64,000 bases of DNA from a virus (Duplodnaviria; Caudoviricetes), in the IMG/VR virus record IMGVR_UViG_3300037851_000671, positions 1-64,000 of that record; one strand, given 5' to 3'. Positions 24,752 through 61,177 of the stretch are shown one piece after another. The translations under genes and the position numbers were made by a program. Numbering within the stretch: the first letter of the stretch is position 1; every line of letters starts with the position of its first letter. The notes under the pieces were generated by a model, which had not been told where the DNA came from, searched no databases, and saw only the letters and a list, made by a program, of their open reading frames with translations.

Positions 24752-25153
24752 ATGTTCAAGATAGTTGAATGTGCTTTTACACATCCAATAAGGATGCCAG
24801 TAAAACCAGGAATACGAATAAGTGCTGGGCACATAGTTAGAACTATTGATTACAAAAATCATGTTGTTGTTGATATTAGTGATGGGTATAGTTTTCTAGG
24901 AGTGGCCGGCAACAGGTGTAAGGGCGGGGCAGAAGTTGACTATGGGAATGTGGTCAAGATTTTCCCACAGCGCATGGTGTTGAGAATTGACAAGTATGAC
25001 AAGAAGTACCCAATGGGAGCGGGAAGCTCGTTGTATGTTGGGTTCGATGGAATTCTGACTTCAAGGAAGCCGCATGAAAGAGCGGTTATTACTGCCAAGG
25101 TGATATCACCAGAAACAGAAGAGCGGAAGTTTATTGAGATCTTGTATTTGTGA
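24752..25153 (+). CDS. Head decoration-like protein (paralog 2, compact/diverged)
   Basis: DISDGYSFLGV, IDKYD and LYVGFDGILT align to 24053. Confidence 0.6.
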   Translation: MFKIVECAFTHPIRMPVKPGIRISAGHIVRTIDYKNHVVVDISDGYSFLGVAGNRCKGGAEVDYGNVVKIFPQRMVLRIDKYDKKYPMGAGSSLYVGFDGILTSRKPHERAVITAKVISPETEERKFIEILYL

Positions 25154-25224
25154 AGATGCTGGTAACAGTGCATAAGTTCACATTCAATTGATACCTTGTT
25201 GGGTATGTTGTATAAAGGTGTTTC

Positions 25225-25551
25225 ATGGTAATGGACGAAGTTTGGAAGGAATTTTTCACTGACCATCAGACCGCTCGCGCACTGGATAGCTCAGAGGTTT
25301 TCCGTGAATATGCGAGAGCTGAGTTAGCTCGTGATGAGTTGAGGAAGCGTGCCCAGGCTCAAAACAGCATGGACGCCAGAATCCAAGAGCTTAACGAGAT
25401 AGAAGAGATGAATCGTAAAGTGGCTAGCGATCCTGCGCTTAAAGCGAAGCTTCGTCAGGCACGTGATTATCTTGAGGAGCATCCAGAGGCAGTGGCGGGT
25501 GTTGATCAAAACTTTGTTCGTGGACTGAGCCTACTTGACCTTGAGGACTAA
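25225..25551 (+). CDS. Putative internal head protein
   Basis: SEVFREYAR motif; LRKRAQ site. Confidence 0.7.
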   Translation: MVMDEVWKEFFTDHQTARALDSSEVFREYARAELARDELRKRAQAQNSMDARIQELNEIEEMNRKVASDPALKAKLRQARDYLEEHPEAVAGVDQNFVRGLSLLDLED

Positions 25552-25554
25552 AAC

Positions 25555-27357
25555 ATGAAGATTGGACTTGCAAAGCAATCATTTCAGAATCTATACGGCT
25601 CCGAGGTATATCGTGAGCTTGAGCGTCAAGCTGTGCGCAAAGGACACTTTGAGCCAACACCAGCGGAGCAGGTTAAGCTTGCATCCAATGAGCTTGCCAT
25701 ATCGAAGCGTGTGAATGCAGAGGTTGATCTGACACCTAGCAGTGACCTGTCACAGGACATTGCCAAGCTTGCCCATGCTCTTCGTCGCAAGGGATACGTC
25801 AAGCAAGCTGAGGATCTTGAATCAAACTTTGTGTTGTTCAAGCAGGCCGAGACAGCTTTGTACAATGTCAACAACGAGAGGGCTAAAGAGCTTATGGAGA
25901 TGGCGCATTCCGATGGGGATGTGGACATTGTTGATGGTGGGGAGCTTGGGGAGATTGAGACAATTCAGAGCGCGGCGGATAAGATACTTGCCGTTGTGAA
26001 CAAGAAGCCAACGGGGAAATTGGCTTCGATGGCAGCTCTGATTATGAAAAGGGGAGAGGTGCCAATTGGACCACCAACCGCTGAACAGGCAGCTGCTGCG
26101 ACAACTACCGGAACTAAAGAGCGTTCCTTGAAGATTAACAAATCAGAACGAGAATGGTCACAAGAACTGGCAAAAGTGAATGCGGCTCTTGGTACCATAG
26201 CAGCGGCCATACCAGAACAGCCAATACCAATTAGCAACAGTCCTTTGGAATGGGATGAAGCTGCAACACAAAAGTTTAGTGTGTATAGTGGTATTAGACC
26301 TGATGTTGCAAAAAAAGGTGTTGATGCAATGAGGAAAGCCAATGCTTCTGGTGTTTTGGAACATGGTGGTTTTTCACTTAATGCACAGTATGTCAAATCT
26401 ATTATCTATAAAGATCCAATGACTAATACTAATTTCATGGATTTTGTTAGGTTCCTTGGTGTTGACCCAAATTATTTTGGCGCCAATGGAGAAAAGGGTT
26501 GTTTTAGCTACTGGATGGAAGACCCAGGTGCGGTAGAGTTGATAAAAGGTATTTTGGACTGGAGTAACCCATTAGGAGTATACCAAAGGATATTTGGACA
26601 AGACGAGGTAAACAAATCTCCTAAGTCCATATACTACCAGACAAGAGTAGTGTATGGACAGCCAGGTTTTATACCTCGTGTTGAGGCTAATATACAAGCC
26701 CTAACCAGCGACATAATTGCAATATTCAACGGCATAATACAAGCTGCCTTTGGAGGCGATGGTGTAAATATAACCAAAGCACAGCAGATTATGAAATCTG
26801 ATTTCGACAAGATTAGACAGTCTGTTTCAAAAGCATTGACACCAGATGTTGCAAACGAAAGTGGAAAATTCAACGTACAAAAAGCACAATCAGTCCTAAG
26901 TGAACTTGATAAAAACCAGAACATCATAACAAACAACAATGATGCTTTTGAGAGAATAAAGGCAACAGATACTGGTTTGGCTACCAAACTACAAGGCGCT
27001 ATAGCTTCTTTTGGTAAGGTTTTGGAAAGTTCTGTGTCTAAAATGCGTGAGTTCAGTAAAGTCGGGGACGAAAATGTTGTGGCTTATATTGCAGAACTTA
27101 AACAGTGGCAAGATCTTTGGAAGCGTGTTGCTACCCACGCTGCGGCAACTGATGAAGAAAAAATGATTTCTAACAAGAACAAAGATGCAATTGATGATGC
27201 TTTGGCAGCAATTCAGACCGGAGATTTTGGCGAAATATCAGATGGTCTTGGGTTGAATATCAAGAACATGAAAGATTTGAACAATTACTTTGAGACAAGT
27301 ATAAGGACGCCTGGTTTGGACAATTATTTGAAGGTTCTAGACAAAAAGGTGAAGTAA
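25555..27357 (+). CDS. Putative internal/ejection protein
   Basis: SEVYRELER; KLAS and KQAE sites; the N-terminal domain aligns with 30675. Confidence 0.65.
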   Translation: MKIGLAKQSFQNLYGSEVYRELERQAVRKGHFEPTPAEQVKLASNELAISKRVNAEVDLTPSSDLSQDIAKLAHALRRKGYVKQAEDLESNFVLFKQAETALYNVNNERAKELMEMAHSDGDVDIVDGGELGEIETIQSAADKILAVVNKKPTGKLASMAALIMKRGEVPIGPPTAEQAAAATTTGTKERSLKINKSEREWSQELAKVNAALGTIAAAIPEQPIPISNSPLEWDEAATQKFSVYSGIRPDVAKKGVDAMRKANASGVLEHGGFSLNAQYVKSIIYKDPMTNTNFMDFVRFLGVDPNYFGANGEKGCFSYWMEDPGAVELIKGILDWSNPLGVYQRIFGQDEVNKSPKSIYYQTRVVYGQPGFIPRVEANIQALTSDIIAIFNGIIQAAFGGDGVNITKAQQIMKSDFDKIRQSVSKALTPDVANESGKFNVQKAQSVLSELDKNQNIITNNNDAFERIKATDTGLATKLQGAIASFGKVLESSVSKMREFSKVGDENVVAYIAELKQWQDLWKRVATHAAATDEEKMISNKNKDAIDDALAAIQTGDFGEISDGLGLNIKNMKDLNNYFETSIRTPGLDNYLKVLDKKVK

Positions 27358-29426: not shown

Positions 29427-29427
29427 T

Positions 29428-33106: not shown

Positions 33107-33793
33107 ATGGCACTAGAACTTGTACAATCAGGCTTTCAGCCACTTGGTCAGTTTGATGGAGCGGACGATGTTTACTTGACCGTCAAGGGTGGCGAGGTAG
33201 CTACTATAATTGGCGTATCAAGGACAGGCACTGACCTTCGCACAGCTGACGTGGCAAACGACGGATACGTTGGAACGACCCGTCCAGCAGCTACCACAAA
33301 TCTTACTTCCGGCAACCGTCCATTGTTCCTCGTGGACGATGGCATTGTTGGATACGGCACTCTGTTTGGTTCCGTCATTGGCGGAGTTGCCGGACAGATT
33401 ACGACAGGCGCTCCACTCGGACCACACACAGCCGCTGCCTCTGGCAAGCTGACACTGTGGGACAAGCCAGGCACCTATGCGATTACGCTTGATGCAGTCG
33501 ATACTACATCCGCAACCGGCTTGGTCCCAACCAACGCCACATTGCAGATTGGCGACGCTCTCTATGCAACAGCCACTGGTTTGGTAACTCCAAACAACGC
33601 TGTATCTTTCGAGAGCCCAGGCGCTTCGGCACCAAAGATTGGCCGTTTCCTCAACTTCGAGACCAACAAGGGTGGCGCACTCGTCACAACCCCAGTCAGC
33701 CTCGTAAGCGCTGCAAACAGCCCAGTAGGCCAGGGACAGCCACAGCTCTCCAGATTTGCCCGTGCGTTGATCTTCTTCAACCCACCTGTCTAA
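33107..33793 (+). CDS. Major head decoration protein (paralog 3, directly upstream of MCP)
   Basis: ASGKLTLW and LYATATGLVT; canonical position before MCP; strong high-expression codon bias like MCP. Confidence 0.7.
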   Translation: MALELVQSGFQPLGQFDGADDVYLTVKGGEVATIIGVSRTGTDLRTADVANDGYVGTTRPAATTNLTSGNRPLFLVDDGIVGYGTLFGSVIGGVAGQITTGAPLGPHTAAASGKLTLWDKPGTYAITLDAVDTTSATGLVPTNATLQIGDALYATATGLVTPNNAVSFESPGASAPKIGRFLNFETNKGGALVTTPVSLVSAANSPVGQGQPQLSRFARALIFFNPPV

Positions 33794-33812
33794 GTTAGAG
33801 AGTTTTTTTCCG

Positions 33813-33876
33813 AAGGATCGGAGGGGTTTAGCGGCCCCTCCTGATCGCCAGGGTTGTTGACAGAGTTGGCAACCTA
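33813..33876 (+). promoter_or_regulatory. Two intergenic hairpins in the MCP leader
   Basis: gatcggagggg..cccctcctgatc, and ggttgttgac/gttggcaacc with G-U pairs, upstream of RBS CAGGAG. Confidence 0.55.
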
Positions 33877-33899
33877 TAACCAAAAACAGGAGTCTACAC

Positions 33900-34127
33900 A
33901 TGTCTTTTTTTAATACACAGGGCACCGTAAATGCCACCAGTTTGAAGGATGCATTGAACACAATCGTTCGTTATGCATCGATCCTCGAAGAGGGACAGCC
34001 CTCCAACATGCAGCTTGCCGGACAGCCAAGCCTAAACAACGAGAAGCGTGATGAGCTGATTTCTCGTGCGATTCTGACACAGGAAGGAAAGATTGCCCTT
34101 GCCCAGGCCATGGCGAACCCAATCCGT
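33900..34127 (+). CDS. Major capsid protein, exon 1 (76 aa)
   Basis: Ends ...EGKIALAQAMANPIR; joins in frame to RNLDYQGIARR at 35295, giving a 336-aa HK97-type MCP. Confidence 0.9.
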
Positions 34128-35294
34128 TAAGTAACCGGCGGATGTAAAATTTAGCTATATGCTGGAACCTCCGAAAGCCTAATCACCGCAGCACTCAACA
34201 GGCCGACCACAGTAGGCGGCTTAAAACAAGCTAAGGTAACAGAATTAGGATGAAACGGACAATCAGCAGGAAAGGCAGACAAAATGGAAATGTATATAAA
34301 ACAATATGAAGCTGGCCTTACAATAAAACAAATTGCAGAACTTAACGAAGTTTCTTTTGAAGCAGTTAGAAAAGCAATAAAAGGCAAAGTGAAATGGCGT
34401 AGAAATTACATTTCAGATTTTACCGAAGAGCAGAAACAAAAAGCTATAAAAATGTTTGATGATGGGCAAACGGTCAAAGAGATAGCAAAGTGGTTTGAGA
34501 TATCACCACCAGCAATATCAAGACTCCTGATAGCAAACAATAGACAGCCTGATTCTTCTGCTAGAAGATATGAGATACTAAGAGCAACACCTCTAAATCT
34601 AATTCAAAAACAATTTATCGTTGGACATTTATTAGGCGATGGTTGTTTATATAGGGATGGAGAAAACTCACTGTTCAAAATATCACTCTCTCATAAAAAA
34701 GAACATGAACAATACTTCCACTGGAAAAGAACGATGTTAGATCCGTTCGTAAACACTTGGAGGGAAAATACAGATAAGAGAGGTAATTCGGTAATGTTAA
34801 ATGCAACAACGATATGTCATCCAGAATTAAAGCAATTTGCTGACATGTTCTATACACAAGATAGAATAAAGGTTGTGCCAAAAAATCTTGATTTATTTTT
34901 GACACCACTTAGTTTAGCAGTTTGGATAATGGATGATGGCAATCTGAATAGCGGAGTAAATATGAGAATAGCCACAATGGGTTTCTCAAGTGAAGACCAT
35001 ATAAGATTGCAGGACTATCTAAGAAGTGTGTTTGATATAAGAAGTAAAATAATGGGTTTTAGTTATAAAGGTAAACAATACCAGCAAATAACAATAAACA
35101 AAGAAAACACTCAAAAGTTATCAAACATAGTTAGGCCGTATATAATTGATTGCATGAAATACAAGATAATGTCTGATTCCTCAACGACTGAATGCTAAAC
35201 ACTAACAAATAGTGATGTTACAGTCTGAACCATATAGAGATATATGGAGCCAAGCAGAAATGACTTGGCCGGCTTCCCTAGCCGTAACACTTTG
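34128..35294 (+). mobile_element. Group I intron (1167 nt) in the MCP gene
   Basis: P1 auccgu/gcggau (34138-34143) with U-G at the 5' splice site; P3 tttagc 34150-34155 / gctaaa 35194-35199; P4 tgctg/cagca; P6 aggaa/ttcct; P7 gactg 35186-35190 / cagtc 35221-35225; P8, P9, P9.1 and P9.2 hairpins; terminal G35294. Confidence 0.95.
34284..35198 (+). CDS. Intron-encoded homing endonuclease: two HTH plus double-motif LAGLIDADG
   Basis: GLTIKQIAELNEVS and GQTVKEIAKWFEIS HTHs; IVGHLLGDG and LAVWIMDDG; located in the P6 loop with its 3' end overlapping P7/P3'. Confidence 0.92.
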   Translation: MEMYIKQYEAGLTIKQIAELNEVSFEAVRKAIKGKVKWRRNYISDFTEEQKQKAIKMFDDGQTVKEIAKWFEISPPAISRLLIANNRQPDSSARRYEILRATPLNLIQKQFIVGHLLGDGCLYRDGENSLFKISLSHKKEHEQYFHWKRTMLDPFVNTWRENTDKRGNSVMLNATTICHPELKQFADMFYTQDRIKVVPKNLDLFLTPLSLAVWIMDDGNLNSGVNMRIATMGFSSEDHIRLQDYLRSVFDIRSKIMGFSYKGKQYQQITINKENTQKLSNIVRPYIIDCMKYKIMSDSSTTEC

Positions 35295-36077
35295 CGCAAC
35301 TTGGACTACCAGGGTATTGCGCGTCGTCTCTTGGTTGTTGACCCGCTCCCACAGGGCGTCAACCCAACCTACGAGCGTGATATTGACGTAGCTGCAACCG
35401 TTGTTTCCAGCAATGGAACCGGTGGTGAGAGCCGCGTATTCGGTGACCGTATCACCGTTCCAACGTTCGAGCTTTACTCCAACCCAACGGTTAGAATCTC
35501 TGAGGTTCGTCGTCGTCGTTTCAACGTCATTGACCGTGCAGTGCAGAAGGCCCGTCAGGAGCTGATGGCTCAGGAAGATGCAAACATCTTCGCAGCCATT
35601 GACGCTGCTGCTCAGGTTGAGAACGTTGTACAGGACATCGCTGACGGTGGTCTCCTCAAGCGTGACCTTGTTGAGATCAAGGCGCAGATTGATCGCTGGG
35701 ACTTGGTAACGACCAAGTTCTTCATGAACATCAATGAGTTTACAGACATCCTCAACTGGGCATCCGGCGGCGGCCAGGGTCCAGGTGGTGGTGAAGTTGA
35801 CCCAGTTACACAGCGTGAGATTCTCCAGACCGGCCTCTACGCCCACATCTGGGGCGCGGACATCATGGTCTCCAAGATTGTTCCATCGGGAACTGTCTAC
35901 GGCGCAGCTGACCCAGAGTTCGTAGGTGTAATGCCAATCCGTCAGGACATCGAAGTTATCCCAGCTGACGAGCCAAAGCAACTTAAACTCGGGTGGGTGG
36001 TATCAGAAGAAATCGGAATCGGCATTGTCAACCCAAGAGGCACAGCCGTTTCCAGAAAGTCAACGCTGGTCGGATAA
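35295..36077 (+). CDS. Major capsid protein, exon 2 (260 aa)
   Basis: RNLDYQGIARRLLVVDPLPQG...EEIGIGIVNPRG; strongest high-expression codon bias; followed by a terminator. Confidence 0.9.
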   Translation, partial: RNLDYQGIARRLLVVDPLPQGVNPTYERDIDVAATVVSSNGTGGESRVFGDRITVPTFELYSNPTVRISEVRRRRFNVIDRAVQKARQELMAQEDANIFAAIDAAAQVENVVQDIADGGLLKRDLVEIKAQIDRWDLVTTKFFMNINEFTDILNWASGGGQGPGGGEVDPVTQREILQTGLYAHIWGADIMVSKIVPSGTVYGAADPEFVGVMPIRQDIEVIPADEPKQLKLGWVVSEEIGIGIVNPRGTAVSRKSTLVG

Positions 36078-36452: not shown

Positions 36453-36523
36453 TTGTCATGTTGCGTTGGTCGCGCACTGTATATTTAGGTATATTGGTGC
36501 GATTATACCAATGGTGATTGATA

Positions 36524-43713: not shown

Positions 43714-43768
43714 TTGTTAGCTAGGCATTCTTCAGTATGAATATGACTCTGCATGAACGGTGAACCGC

Positions 43769-44569
43769 ATGAAACTACCAATAGAAGCTAGAATTAAATT
43801 GCTTTGCAAGGTTGTGGGAGATTTCTACAAATACGCCCACACCAACGAGCAAATATTGCCGTCTTCTATTACCTATCGTGTAACAGCGCCTGAAGAAAGC
43901 ACTTTGGTAAAACAAGCCGCCAGACAGGCTGCCTTTGAGTCTCTTAAAAATTCCACATCTAGTTCTGTACGCCAGGACAAGATTACCAAGCTGGCGTTTG
44001 ATACGAGAAGAATTGATCAGGAGCATGATCGCAATCCTCGCCACAACCTACAATATTGGCACAGATCAGATCCGTTCATTGATGACGAAGACCAGAAGAA
44101 GCTTGATATCTTTGCTCGTCTTGGAAAAATCCTTGGGCAACTCAAGGATAAACTCGGAACGGACCCGCAGTGGTTTGAAAGCTATGTTCGTCAGCTACAC
44201 GATAACGTCAATAGGATATTGAGGGTCAAGCAGGCTGACATGGATATTTTCAGGCCTCAGTTGGCTTATCTTGAACAGTTGGTTTATGCTAGATATAGAT
44301 TGACTATGGAGAATCTTGAGAAATTCTCGGATGAGCAGTTGACGGAATCAATCCTGGCCAAGGATGAAAACCTAAACGGCAAGTCAAAGTTTCTCACCAC
44401 GGTATCTAAAGATGAAAAACCTGCGGCGCTGATAAAAGACAGCTTGACCAAAACAACTCAAGATTCTATTGTCAATGCAATTTTCGGCGCTCCAAACTTG
44501 AGAAGGGATGGGGAAAGAACAGTGGAGAGGACAATCACAATTAAAATCGTTGACAGTGTTGTAGACTAA
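43769..44569 (+). CDS. Putative head-associated protein
   Basis: YKYAH, VKQAA and TKLAF sites; ORF track GTG start at 43760. Confidence 0.7.
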   Translation: MKLPIEARIKLLCKVVGDFYKYAHTNEQILPSSITYRVTAPEESTLVKQAARQAAFESLKNSTSSSVRQDKITKLAFDTRRIDQEHDRNPRHNLQYWHRSDPFIDDEDQKKLDIFARLGKILGQLKDKLGTDPQWFESYVRQLHDNVNRILRVKQADMDIFRPQLAYLEQLVYARYRLTMENLEKFSDEQLTESILAKDENLNGKSKFLTTVSKDEKPAALIKDSLTKTTQDSIVNAIFGAPNLRRDGERTVERTITIKIVDSVVD

Positions 44570-48476: not shown

Positions 48477-49541
48477 ATGTCATCAGAATCGCCAGCATCA
48501 ATTTTGTTTTCATCAGATGGATATGAATTAGCAGCGGTTACCGCTACAGCTATCCCTACTGGCACTCGTGGTCTTCTGGCAATGGGTTCTGATGGTACCA
48601 ATGCCAGGTTCATCAACGTTGACAGCTCTGCAAGGGTGATTACGGCCGGTGCTGGTGTTGCTGGTACTCCTGCCGGTGGCGTACTTAGCATTCAGGGTGT
48701 GGCTGGCGGTACGGCAATTCCTGTTTCGGGTAGCATTACAGCAAACAACGCCTCTGTATCTGCGACAGGATCTGCTCCTCCGGCATCTGCTACTTATATT
48801 GGTGGTAGCGTAACAACAGCCGCCCCCACATACACAACCGGACAGATGAATGCGCTTTCTCTGACAACAGCGGGAGCCTTGAGAGTTGATGGCTCTGGAG
48901 CCACTCAGCCAGTATCTGGTAGCGTAACAGTGAGCGGAACAGTTACTGCTAATCAGGGCACAGCCGCTGCAACAGCTAGTGCATGGCCAATAAAACTTAC
49001 TGACGCTACCAACACAGCCTCTTTGCTGAATACCACACCAGCCGGAACAGAATATGGTTTGGTTGTTAGGAATATTCCATCTGGCACACAGACAATATCA
49101 GGAACCGTTACGGCGAACGCTGGAACTGGTAACTTCACAGTTGTCCAAAACACAGCCGCAAACCTGAATGCTGCTGTTGTTGGTACTGGTGTGGCTGGTA
49201 CTCCTGCTGGTGGTGTGCTCACTGTCCAAGGTGCGTCTGGTGCAACCGCCCTTCCTGTTACAAATCAAAAAGCTGCAACATCGTCACTTTCAAACGTGCC
49301 TGGTTCGGCCACTAGCGTGACGTTGTTGGCTGCAAATGCAAATAGGCTTGGCGCTACAATATACAACGATTCAAGTTCTACGCTATATGTAAAATACGGA
49401 ACAACAGCATCAAACTCAAGTTTTACTATTAGACTGCTAGCGCAAGCATATCACGAGGTTGTATTTGATTACATCGGAAGGATTGATGGTATTTGGAATG
49501 CCTCTACTGGAAATGCTAGAATCACAGAACTAACAGCTTAA
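48477..49541 (+). CDS. Surface fibre/decoration protein (short paralog of 49574)
   Basis: Shared N-terminus MSxESPAS.LF, block GVAGTPAGGVLSIQGVAGGTAIPVSG, and C-terminal SVTLLA.N.NRL...ND...AR(I/V)TE.T domain. Confidence 0.7.
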   Translation: MSSESPASILFSSDGYELAAVTATAIPTGTRGLLAMGSDGTNARFINVDSSARVITAGAGVAGTPAGGVLSIQGVAGGTAIPVSGSITANNASVSATGSAPPASATYIGGSVTTAAPTYTTGQMNALSLTTAGALRVDGSGATQPVSGSVTVSGTVTANQGTAAATASAWPIKLTDATNTASLLNTTPAGTEYGLVVRNIPSGTQTISGTVTANAGTGNFTVVQNTAANLNAAVVGTGVAGTPAGGVLTVQGASGATALPVTNQKAATSSLSNVPGSATSVTLLAANANRLGATIYNDSSSTLYVKYGTTASNSSFTIRLLAQAYHEVVFDYIGRIDGIWNASTGNARITELTA

Positions 49542-49573: not shown

Positions 49574-52500
49574 ATGAGCGGAGAATCACCAGCATCAACA
49601 CTATTTAATGCAGCTGGAGTAGAGCTTGCAGTAACTACCGGATCATCAATTCCAGTTGGTACACCTGCCTTATTGCTGGCCGGAGAAGATAGCACTGGAA
49701 ATGCTCAGAGACTTACGGTTGATGGTTATGGTAGGCAAATAATCGTAAGCGATCCTGACAGTCCAATATCCATTAGCGGAAGCATTACTGCCACAAATCC
49801 ATCTGTTGGCGTGTTGGGAGGAACTCCACCATTATCGGCCACACAAATTGGTGGACCAAATAATGATGGGGTGTTCAACGTATTGGAGGTTACCAGACAA
49901 GGTCACATGCCGGTTGCTGCACAAGCTTTGAACGGGTATGCCGGAGAGGTTACCCAGTGGCCGGTAGACAATCAGATTAGAAAGTCACTGACGGCCGATG
50001 ACTTTGGTGGATTATACACACGTGGTCAGGTAATGACCGATGAAGGGTCTTTTACTGATGTTTTTTCCACGCTTGAAACGTCGTTGACGGGAACAGTATC
50101 TTTCGAGAACAATTCTGTAAACGTTGTTGGTGTTGGAACCGCATTTTTGTCAGAGATAAACTACTATAGCTTGGTAAAAAAAGCAACTGACGCCGATTCT
50201 CTGCTGGTAGAGGTTGAAGCAGTGTTGAGCGACACTGAGCTTCGGCTGTCTTCGCCATACCAAGGAACCACTGCTTCGGGTGTCAGCGCTGTTGAGACGC
50301 ATTGGTATAAGCAGACTGCGTCCGGCGGTACCATAACGATATCCAGCAATACGTGTGTTCTGACAGTGCTGCAAGACAGCGCACAAGCGGCTGGCATTGA
50401 GACAATCGGTGACTACGTACCATTTCTTGGCACGATACGCGCACAGTTGAGTGCGCGTGCTACCAATCAGACGACTTGGATTGGTTACGCTGATACGTTA
50501 TGGAATGGGGTAACAGGCGCACACGCTTGTTTCTTGTTTGATGGTACGACCAACACAACGGTGAAATGCAGCTCTGGTACTGGTCGCACTACCAATACGT
50601 ACCAGGAAACGACGGTTACGATTCCTGGCGGTTTAAACAGTTCGTCACCTCAAAATTACCGAATCGTGCCTTGGCAAGGCCAGGTCGCGTTTTTCATCAA
50701 CGGCAACCAGGTAGCGGTTCACGACCAGTACGTTATCCCTCCATATGTTGACGTGCGCTTCGGTATTTATACAGTGAACACTAGCACTGCCACAGACCTT
50801 ACGGTTACTCTGTATGGCACGGTTTACGAAAGCATCGACAGGTTTGATGTACGTGTGTATAACACTAACGCAGATCTGCTACAGGCGACGGTTAGTGGTA
50901 AGACGACAACAGGTCTGACAGTCCCTCTTCAGGTGAGTACGGCCGGTATTGCAGTAGTATCAGGCGCTGTAACACTATCTGGTACATCGAATACAGTTCG
51001 TGGCAACGTCACACAATACACAGCTGATGGTACGGCGGCTGTTGCAAACTCGTTGCCGGTAATTGCGCAGATGTTGGCAACCAAAGCCGGCGCTAATACT
51101 CTTGACCGTTTGTGGGCTGGTCCGACGAATGCTGATGGTGAGGCTGTAGAAACAGTCGGTGCGCTTCTTGTGAAGGACAGGTTGTACGGATTCAATGGTA
51201 CAACCTGGGACCGTTTACGCTCTACTACTGCAAACGGTTTGGCTGTTGATGTAAGTCGTGTTCAGGGGACTGTCACTGTTGGCGGTATCAATGCTGCTGG
51301 TGGAGGTATAACTGGAAATCCTTTGCGTATCGGTGGCAGTGATGGTTCAAATACCAGAGATATCCAAACAGACACTGCTGGAAATCTGGAGATAGTGGGT
51401 ACCGGTGTTGCTGGTACTCCCGCTGGCGGAGTGCTCAGTATTCAGGGCGTTGCTGGCGGTACGGCAATCCCTGTAAGTGGCACTGTAACCGCAGCAAATG
51501 CATCTGTTTCAACCACAGGATCAGCTCCTCCAGCATCAGCAACGTATGTTGGTGCAAAAGTAGGTACAACAGAGCCATCATATACAAACGGTAATATGGA
51601 GGCACCATCGCTTACCACAGCTGGGCGTCTTCGTGTTGATTCTCAGTTCCTGAATGTTGTAGACTCTGGAAACTCCACTACAACTCCGCTTGGTGCCAAT
51701 GCTACGTTCACAGGAACTGCGGTAGATCTCCTGGCATATGCCAGTATTACATACTCAGTATTTACAGATCAGGATAGCGCTGCAAATGGCGTTGTATGTC
51801 AGTTCAGTCCTGACAATGTAAACTGGGATGATCGTATAATAAATACCAAAACCGCAGACGGAACTGTCAGCGATTTTTCGGCGCGTTCACATGACCGATA
51901 TTTCCGTATCAAGTACACTAACGGAGCCACACCACAGACCACTTTCAGATTTCAGACGATTCTGAAGCGATACATGCCAGCTGGTGATACTACTGGTGTG
52001 GATCATCCGCCACACTCTGGTGATGATGCTCTTCTGGTAAAAGCCGTAATGTCTGGTAAGTCTACGGTTGGTGGTGTTACGTATGTTGATGTTAAAGTAA
52101 ACCCATCTGGAACAATCCAGATTGGTGGTGGTGATACGCCAGCAGAAGGACATGCAAATCCAACAGACGCACAGCTTTCAACCGCTTTTAATATGGGTTG
52201 GAATGGTTCTACATGGGACCGTATTCAGGCGCATGGCAACGACATAGATAGTGATACCGTTGAGACAACCGGCTCTCTTGCTGTGTGCTCTCACAACATG
52301 ATGTTCAACGGCACTTCTTGGGATCGTATACGTGGAACCATAGCCAATGGGCAGCTCGTTGATGTGTCCAGGGTGCAGGGCAGCGTAGCTGTTACTGGTA
52401 CGTTCTGGCAGGCAACACAACCTGTTTCTGGCACTATAACGGCAGCTCAGGCAACTGCGGCAAATCTTAATGCAACTGTAGTTCAAGGTAATGCAGGAAC

Positions 52501-52918
52501 TGCGGCTCAAGGATGGTTTGCCAAGGTCACAGACGGAACGAATACAGCAGCTGTCAAAGCGGCTTCTACTGCGGCAGTTGCTTCAGATCCTGCTTTGGTA
52601 GTGGCTATATCTCCTAACAACTCACTTACCGTAAAAGAACCAAGACCAAGCTCTGCATCACAAGCAAACGTAGCAATCAGTGCCACAAGCGTAACACTAT
52701 TGGCATCTAATACAAACAGGCTTCGTTACTCTGTTATAAATGACACAAACAAACAAGCATATGTATCTCACAGTGGAGCGGCCAGCACAACAAATTACAA
52801 ATACACATTGCAACCTGGTGAATATTACGAAGATCCGTTTCCTTGTTTTACCGGTGCTGTAACAATAATCTGGTCAGGTTCTGGTACTGGTTCCGCTAGG
52901 GTAACCGAGGAGACATAA
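49574..52918 (+). CDS. Long surface fibre/decoration protein
   Basis: Same termini as 48477; repeated FNG(T/S)(T/S)WDR(L/I) motifs; inserted lectin-like beta domain. Confidence 0.7.
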   Translation: MSGESPASTLFNAAGVELAVTTGSSIPVGTPALLLAGEDSTGNAQRLTVDGYGRQIIVSDPDSPISISGSITATNPSVGVLGGTPPLSATQIGGPNNDGVFNVLEVTRQGHMPVAAQALNGYAGEVTQWPVDNQIRKSLTADDFGGLYTRGQVMTDEGSFTDVFSTLETSLTGTVSFENNSVNVVGVGTAFLSEINYYSLVKKATDADSLLVEVEAVLSDTELRLSSPYQGTTASGVSAVETHWYKQTASGGTITISSNTCVLTVLQDSAQAAGIETIGDYVPFLGTIRAQLSARATNQTTWIGYADTLWNGVTGAHACFLFDGTTNTTVKCSSGTGRTTNTYQETTVTIPGGLNSSSPQNYRIVPWQGQVAFFINGNQVAVHDQYVIPPYVDVRFGIYTVNTSTATDLTVTLYGTVYESIDRFDVRVYNTNADLLQATVSGKTTTGLTVPLQVSTAGIAVVSGAVTLSGTSNTVRGNVTQYTADGTAAVANSLPVIAQMLATKAGANTLDRLWAGPTNADGEAVETVGALLVKDRLYGFNGTTWDRLRSTTANGLAVDVSRVQGTVTVGGINAAGGGITGNPLRIGGSDGSNTRDIQTDTAGNLEIVGTGVAGTPAGGVLSIQGVAGGTAIPVSGTVTAANASVSTTGSAPPASATYVGAKVGTTEPSYTNGNMEAPSLTTAGRLRVDSQFLNVVDSGNSTTTPLGANATFTGTAVDLLAYASITYSVFTDQDSAANGVVCQFSPDNVNWDDRIINTKTADGTVSDFSARSHDRYFRIKYTNGATPQTTFRFQTILKRYMPAGDTTGVDHPPHSGDDALLVKAVMSGKSTVGGVTYVDVKVNPSGTIQIGGGDTPAEGHANPTDAQLSTAFNMGWNGSTWDRIQAHGNDIDSDTVETTGSLAVCSHNMMFNGTSWDRIRGTIANGQLVDVSRVQGSVAVTGTFWQATQPVSGTITAAQATAANLNATVVQGNAGTAAQGWFAKVTDGTNTAAVKAASTAAVASDPALVVAISPNNSLTVKEPRPSSASQANVAISATSVTLLASNTNRLRYSVINDTNKQAYVSHSGAASTTNYKYTLQPGEYYEDPFPCFTGAVTIIWSGSGTGSARVTEET

Positions 52919-56051: not shown

Positions 56052-57245
56052 ATGTCAGGATTTCTAGGAGGAGGCGGTTCTGGTGGTGGAGGCGGTGGGT
56101 CTGATGGCTACGCTGCCACTGGTACATTTATCTATCGTGAAGGTGAACCATCCCCTTCAGGAAATGTGTATTCATCTTGGGCCGCTGCCTATGCTGCCAG
56201 AACGGCATTCAAAGGAAGCGCAATCATAGAGATTGATAGTCGTTTTGGATCGCCAACAATCCCTGCTGGTGTTTATGACATGTCAGTTACAAAACTGACA
56301 GGTTCATATTTTAACGATCCTGTATATGTTGCGCCAAGAGTTGATGTTTATGGACAGTTCACAAACCTATCACATATTGAACATATTAGTCTTTACATTC
56401 ACTCTGATGGAGCTATGATAAAAACTCAACCATCAGAGTTTGTTATGCTGCAAATGTTTGATACTAATATAGTAAACCATAATGGTGGTTTGCTTAACCT
56501 TGTAAATTCACAGTGTTTCATTAACTTGTGGCACATAAGTGGTTTTCACGTTTCTGCTGGTGGACCAAACATCAACGTTGATAGTACATCAGGTGTGGTG
56601 ATGGGTATTGGCTTGTTTGGCGGTTTTGACGATTATACCTTTGGAGGTGCTGGAAGTGCATATGTTTATGTAGACAGAACCTCATACCACCAAAATACAC
56701 AACCAATTGCCGATTTAATCTTGGTAATAGCCGAAGCATGGTCTGAACAAATCACGGTATCATATGCTGGCGCACAGTTGCCGGCTGCCGGGGTAACTCG
56801 TCATGCTGATGTATCTGGCGGTGCTGCTCTTAATGTAACTTCAGGATGGACAGAAAAATACCCATATCGTGGTTTGACTATAGCTCGTCAGGCTGGTGGC
56901 CCGGCAAACGTTACATACACCGTAACATTCACGGCTCCAAATGGTAAGGAAGTAACTGAAGATGTAACGGTAGCGGCTGGAGGTTCTGCTCAAACAAACA
57001 ACGCCGGTCCAATTGCTAAGGTTACGACATCAGTTGATCCTGTTGGTACAACGAGTTTTACTACAGGTAATTCGTTTTTTGCTGGAGGAAGCGTACGCTC
57101 TGTAGCGCATCTATTTGCTGATGGTAATGAGATTTTGTACACATTCTATCCAGATACATCAGCCATACTTCCAACCGGAACAGTTCCAAACGGAACCGTT
57201 GCGTTCTCTGCAATAGTACACACGCTTCCAGTATTTACAGCATAA
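56052..57245 (+). CDS. Fibre-like/beta-helix-like protein
   Basis: Gly-rich N-terminus; GNVYSSW...IEID..F.SPTIPAGVYD. Confidence 0.55.
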   Translation: MSGFLGGGGSGGGGGGSDGYAATGTFIYREGEPSPSGNVYSSWAAAYAARTAFKGSAIIEIDSRFGSPTIPAGVYDMSVTKLTGSYFNDPVYVAPRVDVYGQFTNLSHIEHISLYIHSDGAMIKTQPSEFVMLQMFDTNIVNHNGGLLNLVNSQCFINLWHISGFHVSAGGPNINVDSTSGVVMGIGLFGGFDDYTFGGAGSAYVYVDRTSYHQNTQPIADLILVIAEAWSEQITVSYAGAQLPAAGVTRHADVSGGAALNVTSGWTEKYPYRGLTIARQAGGPANVTYTVTFTAPNGKEVTEDVTVAAGGSAQTNNAGPIAKVTTSVDPVGTTSFTTGNSFFAGGSVRSVAHLFADGNEILYTFYPDTSAILPTGTVPNGTVAFSAIVHTLPVFTA

Positions 57246-57445: not shown

Positions 57446-58546
57446 ATGGCGATATTCTTAGACTCAAACGCTCATGTGGCGATGAACAAATCAGCACTAA
57501 GAGCGTTGGATGATTTTCATTCATCTTTGGCGGGCCATGGTAATCCTATGGCCCTTTCTCTTCCTGGCAGAGAAGCAAGTTCAGCAATAGAAAATGCACG
57601 CTCTAAAATTGCTGCTTTGATTGGTGCAGAATCACACAATCAAATTATCTTCACCTCAACATGCACACAGGCTTGCGAATGGGCTTTGAACTTCATCAAA
57701 GCCAAAAACCCAAAGAACATATTCTACTCGCCTTTAGAGCATTCGGCCATTAGACATACCGTTGGCGTTATGTTCCCAAATGGTGTTGAATTAAGCACCT
57801 CCAAAGACGGCAATACGGGTTGTGTGTTCCCGCCTCCACCAAACAGTTTTTTCATCTGTATTCATGCTCAAAACGAAATAGGCACACTACAGAACATTGA
57901 AGCCATTCAGGCCCCGTTGTTCAGTGATATGAGCCAAAGCCTAGCCAGAATACCAATCAACGTTTCAAGAATACCAAACCTTCAACTTGCCGCTTTTGGA
58001 GCCCACAAATTTGGAGGGCCTTCTGGGGTGGGTTTTCTATACATGAAAGACACATCTTGGTGGAAGGCGGTGGAGCCAAGCACCAATCGTTATTACACAG
58101 ATAGACCCGGAACACCTGATACTGGCAGTATTGTAGCTACAGCCGCTGCTTTGGAAGAAGCCATGAGAACACTACCAGAACGCTATGAGCGTATGGTTAG
58201 GTTTCGTGATGTATTGGAACGTGAAATAGAAAGCCTTGGTTTGAAAATAATCGGCAAAAGCGCAGCTAGAATTCCAAGCACTACATCTGTTCATATCGGT
58301 GAACGCATGGGTCCTTATCTAATGAGTCAGCTTGAAACAGAAGGTATATTTATAGGTCTTGGAACTGCGTGTGCTGCTCTTGGCAGTGTGATGGGGCCAA
58401 ATCCTTTAATGACAAGGTTGGGATATGGAGGGCATGCTCATGATTTCATTAGGATATCGCATTTTGGAGATTACGCCGAAAAAGAAGCACACATCGTTGC
58501 AAAGGCGTTGAAGAAGTATTGCCCGAGGGTGAGTGATCTTCCGTGA
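57446..58546 (+). CDS. iscS: Cysteine desulfurase (IscS/NifS family, PLP-dependent)
   Basis: FLDSNA, NEIGT, SDMSQ, GAHKFGGPSGVG (PLP lysine), GTPD, LGTAC (catalytic Cys loop). Confidence 0.88.
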   Translation: MAIFLDSNAHVAMNKSALRALDDFHSSLAGHGNPMALSLPGREASSAIENARSKIAALIGAESHNQIIFTSTCTQACEWALNFIKAKNPKNIFYSPLEHSAIRHTVGVMFPNGVELSTSKDGNTGCVFPPPPNSFFICIHAQNEIGTLQNIEAIQAPLFSDMSQSLARIPINVSRIPNLQLAAFGAHKFGGPSGVGFLYMKDTSWWKAVEPSTNRYYTDRPGTPDTGSIVATAAALEEAMRTLPERYERMVRFRDVLEREIESLGLKIIGKSAARIPSTTSVHIGERMGPYLMSQLETEGIFIGLGTACAALGSVMGPNPLMTRLGYGGHAHDFIRISHFGDYAEKEAHIVAKALKKYCPRVSDLP

Positions 58547-59466: not shown

Positions 59467-59914
59467 GAAAACCGAAGCACAGTTATGGATCACCAACATA
59501 TCTCGTCAAAAAGATATTCAGCTTGGTGATCTTAGGCTGACGGTAAGACGCGGTAAAAGTTACAATCTTCTTGATAAAAAACACTTCCACTACACGGAAG
59601 AGCAAATCAGAGCCAGCATTGCTAGTGGTTCTATTTTCAAGAAAAGAGATGTAATAAGAGTGCGTGAAGTTGCGCCTGTTGTTTACAATATGCGAGTTGA
59701 CATATACAACGGACCAAGAGATGGTATTCGTCCAGTAAGACAGCAACCACCTCCAGAGCACAAGCAATTTGCCGAGCTTGATTTTGATGAGGTATCTGAT
59801 GATAGTCCTCAAGCCCAAGAACAGTATGCAGCAGAAACGGCAGAGCTTGATTTGATGGATAAGATGCCTGCTTTGCCTGTGGATCCAAAGTACCGTAAAA
59901 TGGATAGTGAATAA
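59435..59914 (+). CDS. Hypothetical protein paralogous to the 44581 N-terminus
   Basis: LWITNIS..DIQLGDL...NLL...TEEQIRASIASGSI; acidic C-terminus. Confidence 0.65.
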   Translation: MSQLPTLIPHKKTEAQLWITNISRQKDIQLGDLRLTVRRGKSYNLLDKKHFHYTEEQIRASIASGSIFKKRDVIRVREVAPVVYNMRVDIYNGPRDGIRPVRQQPPPEHKQFAELDFDEVSDDSPQAQEQYAAETAELDLMDKMPALPVDPKYRKMDSE

Positions 59915-59928
59915 CCCAGCATAGGTTC

Positions 59929-60264
59929 ATGGGAGCAGCAACATACATTTTCGCAAATCCAGGTCAAATAGTGCGTCTTATAGAACAGACGCTTGATGGG
60001 TATGGTGACCGCACTGATGGATATGTTCCTGTAGTCCAAAGTGTTGTGTTCCCTGACCTGACAAACGCTGCCGGATACCCTCGTCAGATGAGTCGAATTG
60101 ATGTTGGCTTGTATGCTCATGGAATACAACTTCCAACAGGGGTTGATTCTTTGGGTACATACGTTATCAGCGTCTACTATCAGGAATCCGGCCTATCAAA
60201 ATGGGATGCGTTTGCCATCAATGTTGCAAGGCCATTTGGCAATACGATAGTTACTCCGGCATAA
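59929..60264 (+). CDS. Ig-like virion protein
   Basis: Aligns loosely with the N-terminal domain of 60281 (G.Y...G.Y/W). Confidence 0.55.
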   Translation: MGAATYIFANPGQIVRLIEQTLDGYGDRTDGYVPVVQSVVFPDLTNAAGYPRQMSRIDVGLYAHGIQLPTGVDSLGTYVISVYYQESGLSKWDAFAINVARPFGNTIVTPA

Positions 60265-60280
60265 TTAGGAGGGATGAACA

Positions 60281-61177
60281 ATGGCAACACTTCCAAGATC
60301 TTCTATAATCCAGCCATCTGACACTGTGGCTTTGTGTGCCAAATTTGCCGGACCCGATGGCCAGCCAACAGACCTTGATGCGTTTCCAAATGTCACGATA
60401 GTTCAACCAAGTGGTAATTCCATTGGTCCAATAACTAGCGGAATAAAACACATAGCCACTGGAGAATATGAGTATGACTATTCTGTTGGTCTTTTCCCTC
60501 CGCTTGGAACCTGGCGCGATGTTTGGCGTGGGATTATGGCTGGATTTGAGGTTATCGGAGAGTTTACATTCACCGTTTACACAACCCAGACTCCAGGTCT
60601 AAACACAGATGGATACGAACATCTTGGCGATGATCCTGGTTTCAACTACTCTCAAGTTGCTATTCATAACATCAACGTTCTAATGAAATCTGTCAGGGCA
60701 AGACTAAAGAGCCGTGGCAAAAAACTAGACAAGGATGAATACGGAAATGAGATATACAAAGATTGCGATATCTTTTCTGTTGATGAGTTAGTGACGTTCA
60801 TTGCCCGTTCTCTTTCGGCATTCAATGAGATACCGCACTTTACAATGTTCACATTCGAAGACACACCTATTTTGGAGCAGTTCCACGATGTCTTGGTGCA
60901 GGGCGCGGTGATTTTTGCAATGGGCGCTCAGGCGTTGATTGAGCGTGGTAGAGAATTCCAGATACAAGATAACGGAGTTGGATTTACACCACCAACCATT
61001 TCTGAGCTTCTAAACTCACAAATGGGTACTGAACTTACCAACTGGACAGAGCGCGTAAAGCAAATCAAGGGAAATATGCGCCCTAGTCCAATAGCTCTTG
61101 GAACGCTTTCATTTACATCCGGAGCAAGCCCGCAATTCCGCAGACTTAGGCATCTCCGTCAGCGTAAAATCTATTAA
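60281..61177 (+). CDS. Head-tail connector/neck protein (Ig-like plus adaptor-like helical domain)
   Basis: IFS.D....SLSAFN...QALIERGREFQIQDNG; paralog at 62262; position after the fibre genes. Confidence 0.55.
   Translation: MATLPRSSIIQPSDTVALCAKFAGPDGQPTDLDAFPNVTIVQPSGNSIGPITSGIKHIATGEYEYDYSVGLFPPLGTWRDVWRGIMAGFEVIGEFTFTVYTTQTPGLNTDGYEHLGDDPGFNYSQVAIHNINVLMKSVRARLKSRGKKLDKDEYGNEIYKDCDIFSVDELVTFIARSLSAFNEIPHFTMFTFEDTPILEQFHDVLVQGAVIFAMGAQALIERGREFQIQDNGVGFTPPTISELLNSQMGTELTNWTERVKQIKGNMRPSPIALGTLSFTSGASPQFRRLRHLRQRKIY

Follow-up and report, generated by a model that had tools for sequence, protein, structure and literature searches.

DGY-carrying proteins of the window

Translation of the open reading frames in the window, by which we mean the whole 64,000-nucleotide stretch of DNA analyzed, revealed 22 in-frame Asp-Gly-Tyr (DGY) tripeptides in 11 ORFs on the plus strand. 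The first-pass annotation had listed 22 Asp codons in 11 proteins; all of them were confirmed as in-frame DGY on this strand and none had been missed, since no DGY was found in the window outside these coordinates and none before position 24752. Below, the start of the Asp codon is given for each site. The proteins concerned include a probable head decoration protein, fibres and several conserved virion-module proteins.

The 133-aa protein at 24752–25153 contains one DGY (24881), which is DGE in the closest relative (G001), and has no Pfam or PHROG match. A 228-aa probable head decoration protein (33107–33793; one DGY at 33260) matched phrog_49 “head decoration” weakly (E = 2e-4), and its gene is located immediately upstream of the capsid gene, like that of the decoration protein gp26 in phage G. 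This site is conserved in G001, G003, G008, G010 and G013, and the family holds 40 DGY across 30 members. Seven sites (36575, 37808, 38900, 38939, 39293, 39644 and 39698) are found in a 1786-aa fibre protein (36518–41878) with a collagen-like stretch, two LamG-type domains (PF13385 Laminin_G_3, E = 2e-30) and matches to tail-fibre PHROGs. Three of them (aa 808, 926 and 1043) share one position of a repeat of ∼117 aa, and six of the seven are conserved in G001. Three DGY pairs in the window are close neighbours. The 119-aa protein at 43354–43713, for which no family match was obtained, carries a single site (43447), again conserved in G001.

Three DGY (45949, 46072 and 46384) lie in a highly conserved 495-aa virion-module protein (45208–46695) with more than 500 metagenomic homologues of 57–80% identity. 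In these homologues DGY occurs at 24 different alignment columns, with 0–7 copies each compared to ∼0.15 expected. Its AlphaFold2 model (pLDDT 69) shows coil at all three sites, each directly followed by a strand or helix; small beta-barrel domains were matched weakly and no sheath match was obtained in the structure comparison. The conserved 371-aa virion-module protein (47318–48433) also has three sites (47393, 47543 and 47762). In its alignment (A2), DGY-rich relatives show SDGY or ADGYY, whereas DGY-poor relatives show SDGT, SDST, SDAT, GDGTF or AAGTY. According to the AlphaFold2 model (pLDDT 75), two sites are loop-to-strand positions in a confident beta domain and one falls in a low-confidence linker. 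On the two models together, four of the six sites map to loop-to-strand junctions in confident beta domains and two to low-confidence linkers.

Downstream, a 354-aa protein (48477–49541) has one DGY close to its N-terminus (48516; DGI in G001, DGY in G003), and a 1114-aa probable fibre or appendage protein (49574–52918; weak DUF6385 match) has one at 49721; together with its single orthologue, from a DGY-rich genome, the latter contains 7 DGY vs. 0.48 expected. In the 397-aa protein at 56052–57245, which matches phrog_5596 (unknown function), a Gly-rich N-terminus is followed by DGY (56103). The 111-aa protein at 59929–60264 has two sites seven residues apart (59995 and 60016), and with its three orthologues in DGY-rich genomes reaches 10 DGY vs. 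0.20 expected. Finally, a 298-aa protein (60281–61177) has a single site (60608), which G013 and all four DGY-rich relatives share. The labels “Ig-like” and “neck” previously given to some of these proteins received no confirmation from Pfam, PHROG or structure comparison.

Excess and specificity of DGY

In the outer proteins of the particle, DGY is about 10-fold more frequent than chance predicts, both in this phage and in its close relatives. The window encodes 20,414 aa, for which per-protein composition predicts 3.2 DGY and a first-order Markov model 5.6, the latter falling to 2.98 without the contribution of DGY itself. The subregion 33107–61177 (9,115 aa) contains 21 vs. 1.6 (composition) or 3.9 (Markov), so that the 2–3 roughly estimated beforehand was fair. 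Per-protein shuffling of the window (n = 5000) gave a mean of 3.3 and a maximum of 12, with none of the 5000 shuffles above 12, and DGY ranks first, by a wide margin, among all 8000 tripeptides under both models (P = 6e-12 and 1e-7). The excess survives the two controls named in the first-pass annotation, the collapsing of repeats and the correction for composition. Counting as one, by eye, any sites separated by fewer than 30 aa, and likewise the three paralogous repeats in the 1786-aa fibre, left 17 sites (P(≥17) = 1.5e-6 vs. the 1.27x that DGY-poor relatives give as an empirical baseline). The first ∼8,000 aa contain no DGY, but 0 vs. 1.1–1.5 expected is no depletion by itself. Simple counts do not show DGY to be complementary to a K-x-A set, as had been suggested: K-x-A stands at 1.3x in either half of the window and is present in DGY proteins too.

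The tripeptide is encoded by 11 different 9-mers in the window, where GAYGGNTAY occurs 24 times on the plus strand (22 in frame) and twice on the minus strand. The varied codon strings and the scarcity of matches out of frame or on the opposite strand show that the signal resides at protein rather than DNA level. Any other ordering of these residues (five are possible) is found only 2–3 times in the same window proteins, in line with expectation, and in virion modules 76 DGY stand against 5–17 for each other ordering. Near-miss tripeptides are close to or below expectation (NGY 0.8x, EGY 0.8x, DGF 1.3x, DGW 0.5x, DAY 0.5x), SGY and AGY are not enriched in the tripeptide counts either, and DGS and DGT are mildly enriched (1.5–2x) in all these phages. 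A search for an extended motif flanking DGY found none. Fibres encoded just beyond the window have tandem arrays, e.g., of six DGY within 22 residues. The first 60 residues of proteins hold 95 of 426 DGY sites vs. 10.5% of residues, about twice the expected share (P = 1e-12), and an N-terminal DGY-containing segment is common to two fibre paralogues.

Distribution among relatives

The whole record contains 79 DGY vs. 11 expected, which makes it the top tripeptide (P = 3e-40). It is also the top tripeptide in four fully fetched relatives (81–94 observed vs. 9–21 expected) and in ∼27 of 50 loci (47 IMG/VR loci and 3 others). The phages from which these sequences come are huge, freshwater, uncultured and phage-G-like. 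Five other relatives are at baseline (62 vs. 48.6 expected), as is cultured phage G (34 vs. 21.2; rank 245 among tripeptides), and where DGY-poor relatives encode an orthologue of the 495-aa or 371-aa protein, it contains no DGY at all. Protein families that are rich in DGY in one lineage stay at baseline elsewhere. In trees of capsid, portal and baseplate proteins, G015 and G017, both DGY-poor, are on very long branches, so the DGY-rich phages are probably one lineage, and the association of the trait with the sugar island described below may rest on a single evolutionary event. No DGY was found in 41 members of the major capsid protein family; as the outer face of the capsid is presumably exposed, exposure alone does not decide which proteins carry the motif.

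Bacillus phage G (Donellivirus gee) is the closest cultured relative, with a major capsid protein 53% and a portal 32% identical, and shares homologues of tail and baseplate proteins. It has no homologue of the 495-aa protein, no DGY excess and no GT2 glycosyltransferase above cut-off, and is therefore an outgroup without the trait rather than a laboratory model.

Conservation and turnover of sites and avoidance in non-virion proteins

Individual sites are conserved well above background while new ones keep arising. In the closest relative, 80% of DGY sites are conserved vs. 24% of background tripeptides, and in more distant relatives 34–43% vs. 10%; sites are kept 3–4 times better than neighbouring tripeptides. 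Each relative also has 11–20 DGY at other aligned positions. Asp and Tyr tend to be present together: at alignment column 248, both are found in 50 sequences, D only in 0, Y only in 3 and neither in 68, and at column 289 they are largely gained and lost together. New sites often consist of a Tyr placed after a pre-existing Asp-Gly turn, and DGT, DGQ, DGE and DGS are the common alternatives. At some columns the alternatives are unrelated (e.g., AGE or EAG), which argues that the turn itself is not required.

Non-virion and packaging proteins of five DGY-rich genomes contain, when pooled, 4 DGY, compared to 10–24 (mean 16.6) for each of the other five orderings (P = 2.5e-4, an optimistic value as the orthologues are not fully independent). 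The depletion is significant only with orthologues and other non-virion modules pooled. In DGY-poor genomes the same non-virion families have 5 DGY vs. 2.06 expected. We believe that avoidance of DGY in non-virion proteins is described here for the first time.

Candidate enzymes

The last DGY-rich fibre gene is followed, after 27 bases, by a sugar island of ∼10 soluble glycosyltransferases plus GDP-sugar enzymes. Among 13 DGY-rich records, 12 gave a GT2 match exceeding the curated cut-off, and GT1 (mostly sub-cut-off) and a sugar epimerase were detected in 11 each; all three are present in the DGY-weak record G013. At the cut-off, none of the three was found in nine DGY-poor records, three of which gave a sub-cut-off GT2 match. 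This co-distribution does not discriminate, because ∼45 other genes of this genome share it even at profile sensitivity, among them those for a TubZ-like tubulin, methionine aminopeptidase, GMP reductase and a head phosphatase. An oxidoreductase and several conserved DGY-free proteins of unknown function (e.g., 43760–44569) are likewise confined to the DGY-rich lineage. None of the island enzymes closely resembles a known protein glycosyltransferase, and sequence searches of the PDB returned nothing decisive.

The first-pass annotation had pointed to a GT-A glycosyltransferase and a tyrosine-type phosphatase in the DGY region. The former is a weakly GT-A-like 267-aa protein of the virion module (42575–43378, plus strand; PF00535, E = 1.2e-3), which does match Pfam GT2, but at 19.3 bits it remains below the curated cut-off of 23.3. 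It is probably not a general reader of DGY, since its orthologue was found only in the closest relative. The latter is a genuine CX5R phosphatase (PF03162 Y_phosphatase2, 42.6 bits), but lies outside that region, at 16133–17218 (plus strand) in the head gene cluster, and is not a kinase. Its gene sits among those of internal head proteins; it is present in 12 of 13 DGY-rich and 0 of 9 DGY-poor records and absent from the DGY-weak fragment G013. PF03162 phosphatases are best known as inositol-pyrophosphate and atypical dual-specificity enzymes.

DGY as a tag and alternative explanations

The “peptide code” proposed earlier is borne out insofar as DGY behaves as a selected short motif limited to a subset of virion proteins. 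As judged from sequence, it appears to be a three-residue linear motif under selection on outer particle proteins of one phage-G-like lineage, and looks like an undescribed tag read by some phage factor, possibly a sugar-adding enzyme. Specificity, conservation with turnover, presence or absence by lineage and avoidance fit a trans-acting enzyme or binding partner. A lineage-specific factor would recognize accessible D-G-Y, so that sites would be favoured on proteins to be marked and purged from others. We tentatively propose that this factor may be a soluble phage enzyme that modifies the hydroxyl of the tyrosine while the protein is in the cytoplasm, either ahead of assembly or in its course, with O-glycosylation by the island adjoining the DGY-rich fibre genes as the best candidate chemistry; this would give the particle a sugar coat. 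Against it, the co-distribution of the island is weak evidence, sugar islands of large phages may modify the host surface instead, and tyrosine O-glycosylation is rare in biology. Four of the six modelled sites are ordinary loop-to-strand turns, which a structural explanation fits too.

It is conceivable, if somewhat doubtful, that DGY is read by a binding protein and not by an enzyme. The accessible D-G-Y turns and arrays would then serve as attachment points for a coat, decoration or assembly protein specific to the lineage, or for a bound polysaccharide, which would form an outer layer or fasten fibres. Specificity, lineage distribution, avoidance and tandem arrays (through avidity) would fit such docking equally well. 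The N-terminal bias of sites speaks for docking, as the N-terminus is commonly the end by which fibres and spikes are attached to the particle, and so does the segment shared by two fibre paralogues; the DGY-free proteins limited to the DGY-rich lineage, such as that at 43760–44569, would provide candidates. The partner itself remains hypothetical, though, three residues are a very short epitope for specific protein–protein binding, and sites spread over many unrelated domains with fast turnover would be unusual for structural interfaces.

Other chemistry on the tyrosine or on the Asp-Gly bond appears unlikely: phosphorylation, which the head-cluster phosphatase would cycle, oxidative tyrosine cross-linking, which would harden the particle, sulfation, or succinimide/isoaspartate formation. 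The phosphatase is co-distributed as tightly as the sugar genes except in G013, an oxidoreductase is confined to the same lineage, and any promiscuous modifying activity predicts avoidance in cytoplasmic proteins. Yet no kinase, sulfotransferase, tyrosinase or peroxidase was noticed in an untargeted scan of proteins, and the phosphatase, of a family best known for inositol-pyrophosphate and atypical dual-specificity enzymes, is encoded among internal head proteins. Of all sequences, Asp-Gly forms aspartimide most readily (PMC12447389), but such reactions leave the strict need for Tyr unexplained, with DGF, DGS and DGT near baseline.

Similarly unlikely is that DGY has no reader and is a favoured means of having a surface tyrosine directly behind a tight Asp-Gly turn of beta-rich fibre domains. 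Selection would then act on a physical trait, e.g., how well the particle adheres to polysaccharide of the host or how stable it is. The loop-to-strand sites, the origin of many sites on existing DG turns and the mild enrichment of DGS and DGT would fit, and an Asp with an aromatic residue is typical of sugar-binding sites. Conversely, NGY, SGY, AGY, DGF and DGW are not enriched, AGE or EAG replaces the motif at some columns, and tandem DGY runs are not beta turns. Moreover, a purely structural motif explains neither the non-virion depletion nor why DGY-poor relatives and phage G lack DGY in the orthologous domains. An artefact of composition, internal repeats, multiple testing or DNA-level signal has a negligible probability: paralogous repeat units do hold three of the window sites, three pairs lie close together and 8000 tripeptides were implicitly tested, but the collapse, ordering, codon and replication tests reject it.

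Comparison with known systems

Virion glycosylation by virus-encoded soluble glycosyltransferases is known from mycobacteriophages, where capsid and tail-tube proteins are O-glycosylated, and from chlorovirus PBCV-1, whose capsid glycans are attached at atypical sequons. Similarly, a DGY-reading phage glycosyltransferase would decorate viral structural proteins in the cytoplasm; glycosyltransferase genes lie next to structural genes here too, and the acceptors would depart from the cellular N-x-S/T rule. Unlike in those viruses, the putative acceptor is a tyrosine in a strict D-G-Y context, on at least a dozen particle proteins and in tandem arrays, and the present phage is known from sequence alone while the glycans are known there. 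To our knowledge, proteome-wide motif avoidance has not been described for either system.

Short sequons in bacteria include N-x-S/T, also used by the cytoplasmic NGT/HMW1C enzymes, and the D-(S/T)-(A/I/L/V/M/T) motif of Bacteroidetes O-glycosylation. Like these, DGY would be a code of three residues in which an acidic or polar one adjoins a hydroxyl or amide acceptor, with sites gained and lost while their number is maintained, and a single enzyme would serve many substrates. It differs in having Tyr in place of Ser, Thr or Asn and a fixed central Gly, and the Bacteroidetes system is periplasmic and uses lipid-linked glycans, whereas the enzymes of this phage are soluble; DGY cannot be claimed as a member of this class. 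Tyrosine O-glycosylation occurs in S-layer proteins of Paenibacillus and Thermoanaerobacter, in the self-glucosylation of glycogenin and with Photorhabdus PaTox. We know of no D-G-Y context among these examples, none that is viral and none that marks many proteins at once. They do show that a tyrosine hydroxyl can bear a glycan and that GT-A-fold enzymes are capable of this in the cytoplasm.

DGY Is Over-Represented in the Window and in the Whole Record

The first-pass annotation had recorded 22 copies of the tripeptide Asp-Gly-Tyr (DGY), with Asp codons starting from 24881 to 60608, as a strong excess in surface and structural proteins. All 22 were recovered in frame on the + strand, in 11 ORFs, and the window contains no further copy. 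Per-protein composition predicts 3.2 copies and a first-order Markov model 5.6, or 2.98 when DGY's own dipeptide contribution is subtracted, and per-protein shuffling (n = 5000) gave a mean of 3.3 with a maximum of 12. DGY ranked first among all tripeptides under both models, with the next one far behind. The excess did not vanish after correction for composition and repeat collapse, in which close-neighbor sites and three paralogous fiber repeat units were merged: 17 sites remained (P = 1.5e-6 against an empirical baseline from DGY-poor relatives). For each of the other five orderings of D, G, and Y, the same proteins contain 2-3 copies. A composition or repeat artefact is therefore ruled out by the expectations, the shuffles, the collapsed sites, and the other orderings. 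The whole record holds 79 DGY versus 11 expected (P = 3e-40), and the fibers just past the window end carry tandem DGY runs, for example six copies within 22 residues of a 1023-aa protein (genome 67739-70810). No DGY was found in the window before position 24752, a result that is not significant taken alone, as the expectation is merely 1.1-1.5. The DGY observation is real, strong, and replicated.

Eleven distinct codon strings encode the tripeptide, and the degenerate string GAYGGNTAY has 24 matches on the + strand, 22 of them in frame, and two on the opposite strand. This codon variety and reading-frame distribution rule out an explanation at the DNA level, and the signal resides in the protein. 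The proposed complementarity of DGY to a K-x-A set of internal proteins did not show up in simple K-x-A counts, which did not differ between the window's two halves.

Distribution of DGY Among Related Phages

Metagenomes yielded more than 500 homologs of the 495-aa protein (45208-46695), at 57-80% identity. Among the best 120 of these, DGY occurs at 24 distinct alignment columns, with 0-7 copies per protein versus about 0.15 expected. The alternatives at these columns are often unrelated (AGE, AGN, EAG), or the turn alone is kept (DGQ, DGE). D and Y largely came and went together at two of the columns, 248 and 289. Two clades of the 495-aa homologs have no DGY at all. Across 50 loci (47 from IMG/VR), DGY was the top tripeptide in about 27, at 7-28 times expectation, and stood at 0-3 times expectation in the remainder.

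Ten relatives were compared as whole records. In four of them (G001, G003, G008, and G010), DGY was again the top tripeptide, with 81-94 copies versus 9-21 expected; five others (G014, G015, G017, G019, and G020) are DGY-poor, at 0.8-1.5 times expectation. The tenth, the fragment G013, is intermediate: its tail and fiber orthologs retain DGY (6 times expectation), with none around the 495-aa gene, and the tag can therefore be lost separately from different parts of the particle. A sub-lineage comprising G013 (L143-L149) and L001 has a capsid protein of the DGY-rich type, yet its 495-aa and 371-aa proteins and their neighbors are stripped of every DGY. The P0040 clade, like L001, combines such a capsid with a 495-aa region free of DGY. 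Bacillus phage G (Donellivirus gee, NC_023719.1), the closest cultured relative, has 34 DGY versus 21 expected, which places the motif at rank 245 among tripeptides. The values of the DGY-poor relatives and of phage G thus set an empirical baseline of about 1.1-1.6 times expectation for comparable phage proteomes, and the trait is confined to one lineage. DGT or DGS as an alternative sequon of the DGY-poor relatives was rejected, as the strong local signals were tandem domain repeats and DGS and DGT stand at 1.5-2 times expectation in all genomes.

Conservation, Turnover, and Avoidance of DGY

The closest relative shares 80% of the DGY sites, versus a 24% share of all tripeptides in those proteins; for three relatives at a greater distance, 34-43% of the sites are shared versus a background of 10%. 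Each relative in turn has 11-20 DGY at aligned positions that lack the motif in this genome. DGY accordingly evolves like a sequon, with conservation above background and gain and loss elsewhere. All four DGY-rich relatives, and G013 as well, have kept sites 33260, in the probable 228-aa decoration protein (33107-33793), and 60608, in the 298-aa protein (60281-61177), and site 47393, in the 371-aa protein (47318-48433), is kept in all four and reads DAT in G013. Members of the 371-aa family carry SDGY or ADGYY in DGY-rich genomes and SDGT, SDST, SDAT, GDGTF, or AAGTY in DGY-poor ones; thus Thr was replaced by Tyr at a retained turn, for which two base changes are needed.

When five DGY-rich genomes were pooled, DGY reached 12-15 times expectation in the modules at 36.5-64, 64-110, and 146.6-156.5 kb. 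The major capsid protein, portal, terminase, internal head proteins, and the 142-aa protein after the 495-aa gene have none or nearly none. Pooled counts were below expectation for head and packaging (1 versus 3.9), sugar island and metabolism (0 versus 5.7), and replication (3 versus 5.6), and non-virion homologs in four relatives gave 1 versus 9.9. Controlled by the other orderings of D, G, and Y, the pooled avoidance amounts to 4 DGY versus 10-24 (mean 16.6; P = 2.5e-4); such P-values are optimistic because orthologs are not fully independent, but the direction was nonetheless uniform across genomes. Homologs of the same families in DGY-poor genomes had 5 DGY versus 2.1 expected.

A Putative Factor Recognizing DGY

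A factor that recognizes D-G-Y, hereafter the reader, probably exists. We propose it because of the specificity for residue and order, the conservation combined with turnover, the presence or absence by lineage within the same families, the tandem arrays, and the avoidance elsewhere. Genome-wide, NGY, EGY, DGF, DGW, DAY, and DSY stand at 0.5-1.3 times expectation. DGY is thus strict on residue and order, as a sequon would be, and is a short, position-independent motif with a residue able to accept a glycan. No extended consensus was found in its flanks, which are somewhat poor in Lys and Glu and, at +1, poor in Pro, and sequence variability around DGY columns did not differ from that in random windows. 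In the first 60 residues of proteins the motif occurs at twice expectation.

The reader may be an enzyme acting on the hydroxyl of the tyrosine, with glycosylation as the most plausible reaction; we hold this view tentatively. Right behind the last DGY-rich fiber gene lies an island encoding about ten soluble glycosyltransferases (GT4-like, several GT2, GT10, and GT11) together with methyltransferases, an aminotransferase, and GDP-sugar enzymes. The split between DGY-rich and DGY-poor phages is a clean natural experiment for the reader search, and co-distribution was surveyed in 23 records (13 DGY-rich, 9 DGY-poor, and the DGY-weak G013). GT2 was above cut-off in 12 of the 13 DGY-rich records, and GT1 and a sugar epimerase were detected in 11 each; all three families were present in G013. 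None exceeded its cut-off in any of the nine DGY-poor records, which include four complete genomes of 143-529 kb. Phage G likewise had no GT2 above cut-off.

The head phosphatase (16133-17218, PF03162) shows nearly the same pattern, being found in 12 of 13 DGY-rich and none of nine DGY-poor records and absent from G013. Whole-genome profiling of five DGY-rich versus five DGY-poor genomes yielded 59 candidates by BLAST, which profile searches narrowed to about 45. Even at profile sensitivity, then, about 45 genes in this genome have the distribution of the glycosyltransferases, too many for this unbiased profiling of ten genomes to pick out any single gene. Trees of the capsid, portal, and baseplate proteins place the DGY-poor G015 and G017 on very long branches, and therefore the DGY-rich phages may represent a single lineage and the gene association one event. 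The glycosyltransferase co-distribution would fit a sugar coat on DGY, yet it is not strong evidence and does not discriminate among candidates, because the phosphatase and about 45 genes behave likewise and a single lineage or event may underlie the association. A search of the three conserved island glycosyltransferases (genome 110349-113150) against solved structures by sequence returned nothing decisive. The GT-A-like gene in the window (42575-43378), which the first-pass annotation had put forward in connection with DGY, is a weak match with an ortholog solely in the closest relative and does not qualify as a general reader. The families specific to DGY-rich loci near the 495-aa gene were LAGLIDADG homing endonucleases and a CCA-adding enzyme, and were rejected as readers.

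A non-enzymatic partner docking on DGY would also recognize a strict tripeptide at accessible positions; we consider it unlikely, and less likely still is some other chemistry on Tyr or on Asp-Gly. Equally improbable to us is a structural or adhesive motif that acts without any reader. In an AlphaFold2 model of the 495-aa protein (pLDDT 69; DSSP), all three sites are in coil: two immediately precede strands where the model is confident, and the third is in a loop of low confidence ahead of a helix. In that of the 371-aa protein (pLDDT 75; DSSP), two sites fall where loops pass into strands of a confident beta domain (pLDDT 80-96), and the third falls in a low-confidence linker. If DGY were simply a beta-turn, the enrichment should be common to NGY, DGF, DGW, and SGY and to all related lineages. 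This prediction failed, as variants stood at 0.5-1.3 times expectation and orthologs in DGY-poor relatives and phage G were at baseline.

Returning to an enzyme acting on tyrosine, the fullest form of this reading, a previously unknown protein-marking system across a lineage of huge freshwater phages, is possible but somewhat doubtful. In such a system, a phage enzyme would modify the Tyr of every accessible DGY with a chemical group, for which a sugar chain is the most plausible candidate; the outer particle proteins would accumulate DGY, to the point of tandem arrays, and the remaining phage proteome would purge it, as genomes purge restriction sites. A literature search for the DGY motif in phages found no paper. 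Should DGY prove to be a modification sequon, its acceptor rule, tyrosine within a three-residue code, would be new, and this would to our knowledge be the first virus with an entire proteome molded by such a rule, through enrichment as well as avoidance. Huge phages would then coat tails and fibers, beyond capsids alone, with a bearing on host recognition, escape from recognition by hosts or grazers, and particle stability in fresh water, and a three-residue tag with a small set of soluble enzymes could become a protein-labelling tool. Even without an enzyme, DGY flags the outward-facing proteins of poorly annotated phages.

Genome Organization and Additional Features

The record is a single virus contig of 218,772 bases with a completeness of about 51% (CheckV), of which the window is the first 64000, and nearly all window genes are on the + strand. 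The confirmed genes are those of a large terminase interrupted by an intein (4876-7833), the portal (7851-9704), a CX5R phosphatase in the head gene cluster (PF03162, 16133-17218), the major capsid protein in two pieces (33900-36077), and a 1786-aa fiber with collagen-like and LamG domains (36518-41878). The capsid protein is 53% identical to phage G gp27 across 92% of its length, and the portal 32% identical to that of phage G; judged by these homologous proteins, the virus is therefore a phage-G-like huge phage. Searches of a cultured-phage collection found no match to the record at the nucleotide level and none to the 495-aa protein.

The terminase intein contains a LAGLIDADG endonuclease domain and is inserted within the ATPase domain. 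The first capsid piece, a 76-aa ORF (33900-34130), shares 68% identity with the first 74 residues (1-74) of an intact homolog, and the second (35244-36077) corresponds to positions 71-317 of the 318-position profile phrog_2522. The two are separated by a gene for a LAGLIDADG endonuclease that also has an HTH domain (34284-35198), and the intervening sequence matched no Rfam intron family at E<=0.01. The + strand decoration gene is overlapped by a 247-aa - strand ORF (33218-33961), which displaces it in length-greedy ORF calling; judged by its family (n = 30 members), the + strand ORF is the conserved one of the pair at 33107-33961.

Fold searches with the 495-aa protein gave weak matches alone, all to the small beta-barrel domains that occur in tailspikes and tail tips (Z about 7). 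Its assignment as a tail sheath was dropped, as its sequence matched no solved structure and fold searches gave no sheath, and the phage G sheath-region homolog corresponds to a different gene, at 78319-80796 beyond the window.

The virion module also includes a class-V aminotransferase/cysteine-desulfurase-like gene (57446-58546, PF00266, E 1e-33) and a gene for Peptidase C39, the double-glycine leader peptidase family (61204-62253). Near the latter, the 397-aa protein (56052-57245) has a long Gly-rich N-terminal run with DGY at its end. The gene of a 996-aa DGY-rich fiber (genome 107332-110322), which directly precedes the glycosyltransferase island, encodes two DVNGDG...D segments reminiscent of calcium loops of the dockerin or EF-hand-like type. 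In phage G, the top over-represented tripeptides are CPI and PIC (37 each versus 3 expected), a pattern that hints at a recurring C-P-I-C motif, perhaps within a family of paralogs. A TubZ/PhuZ-like tubulin gene (PF00091 and a TubZ C-terminal domain; genome 131488-132873) is kept in all DGY-rich relatives.
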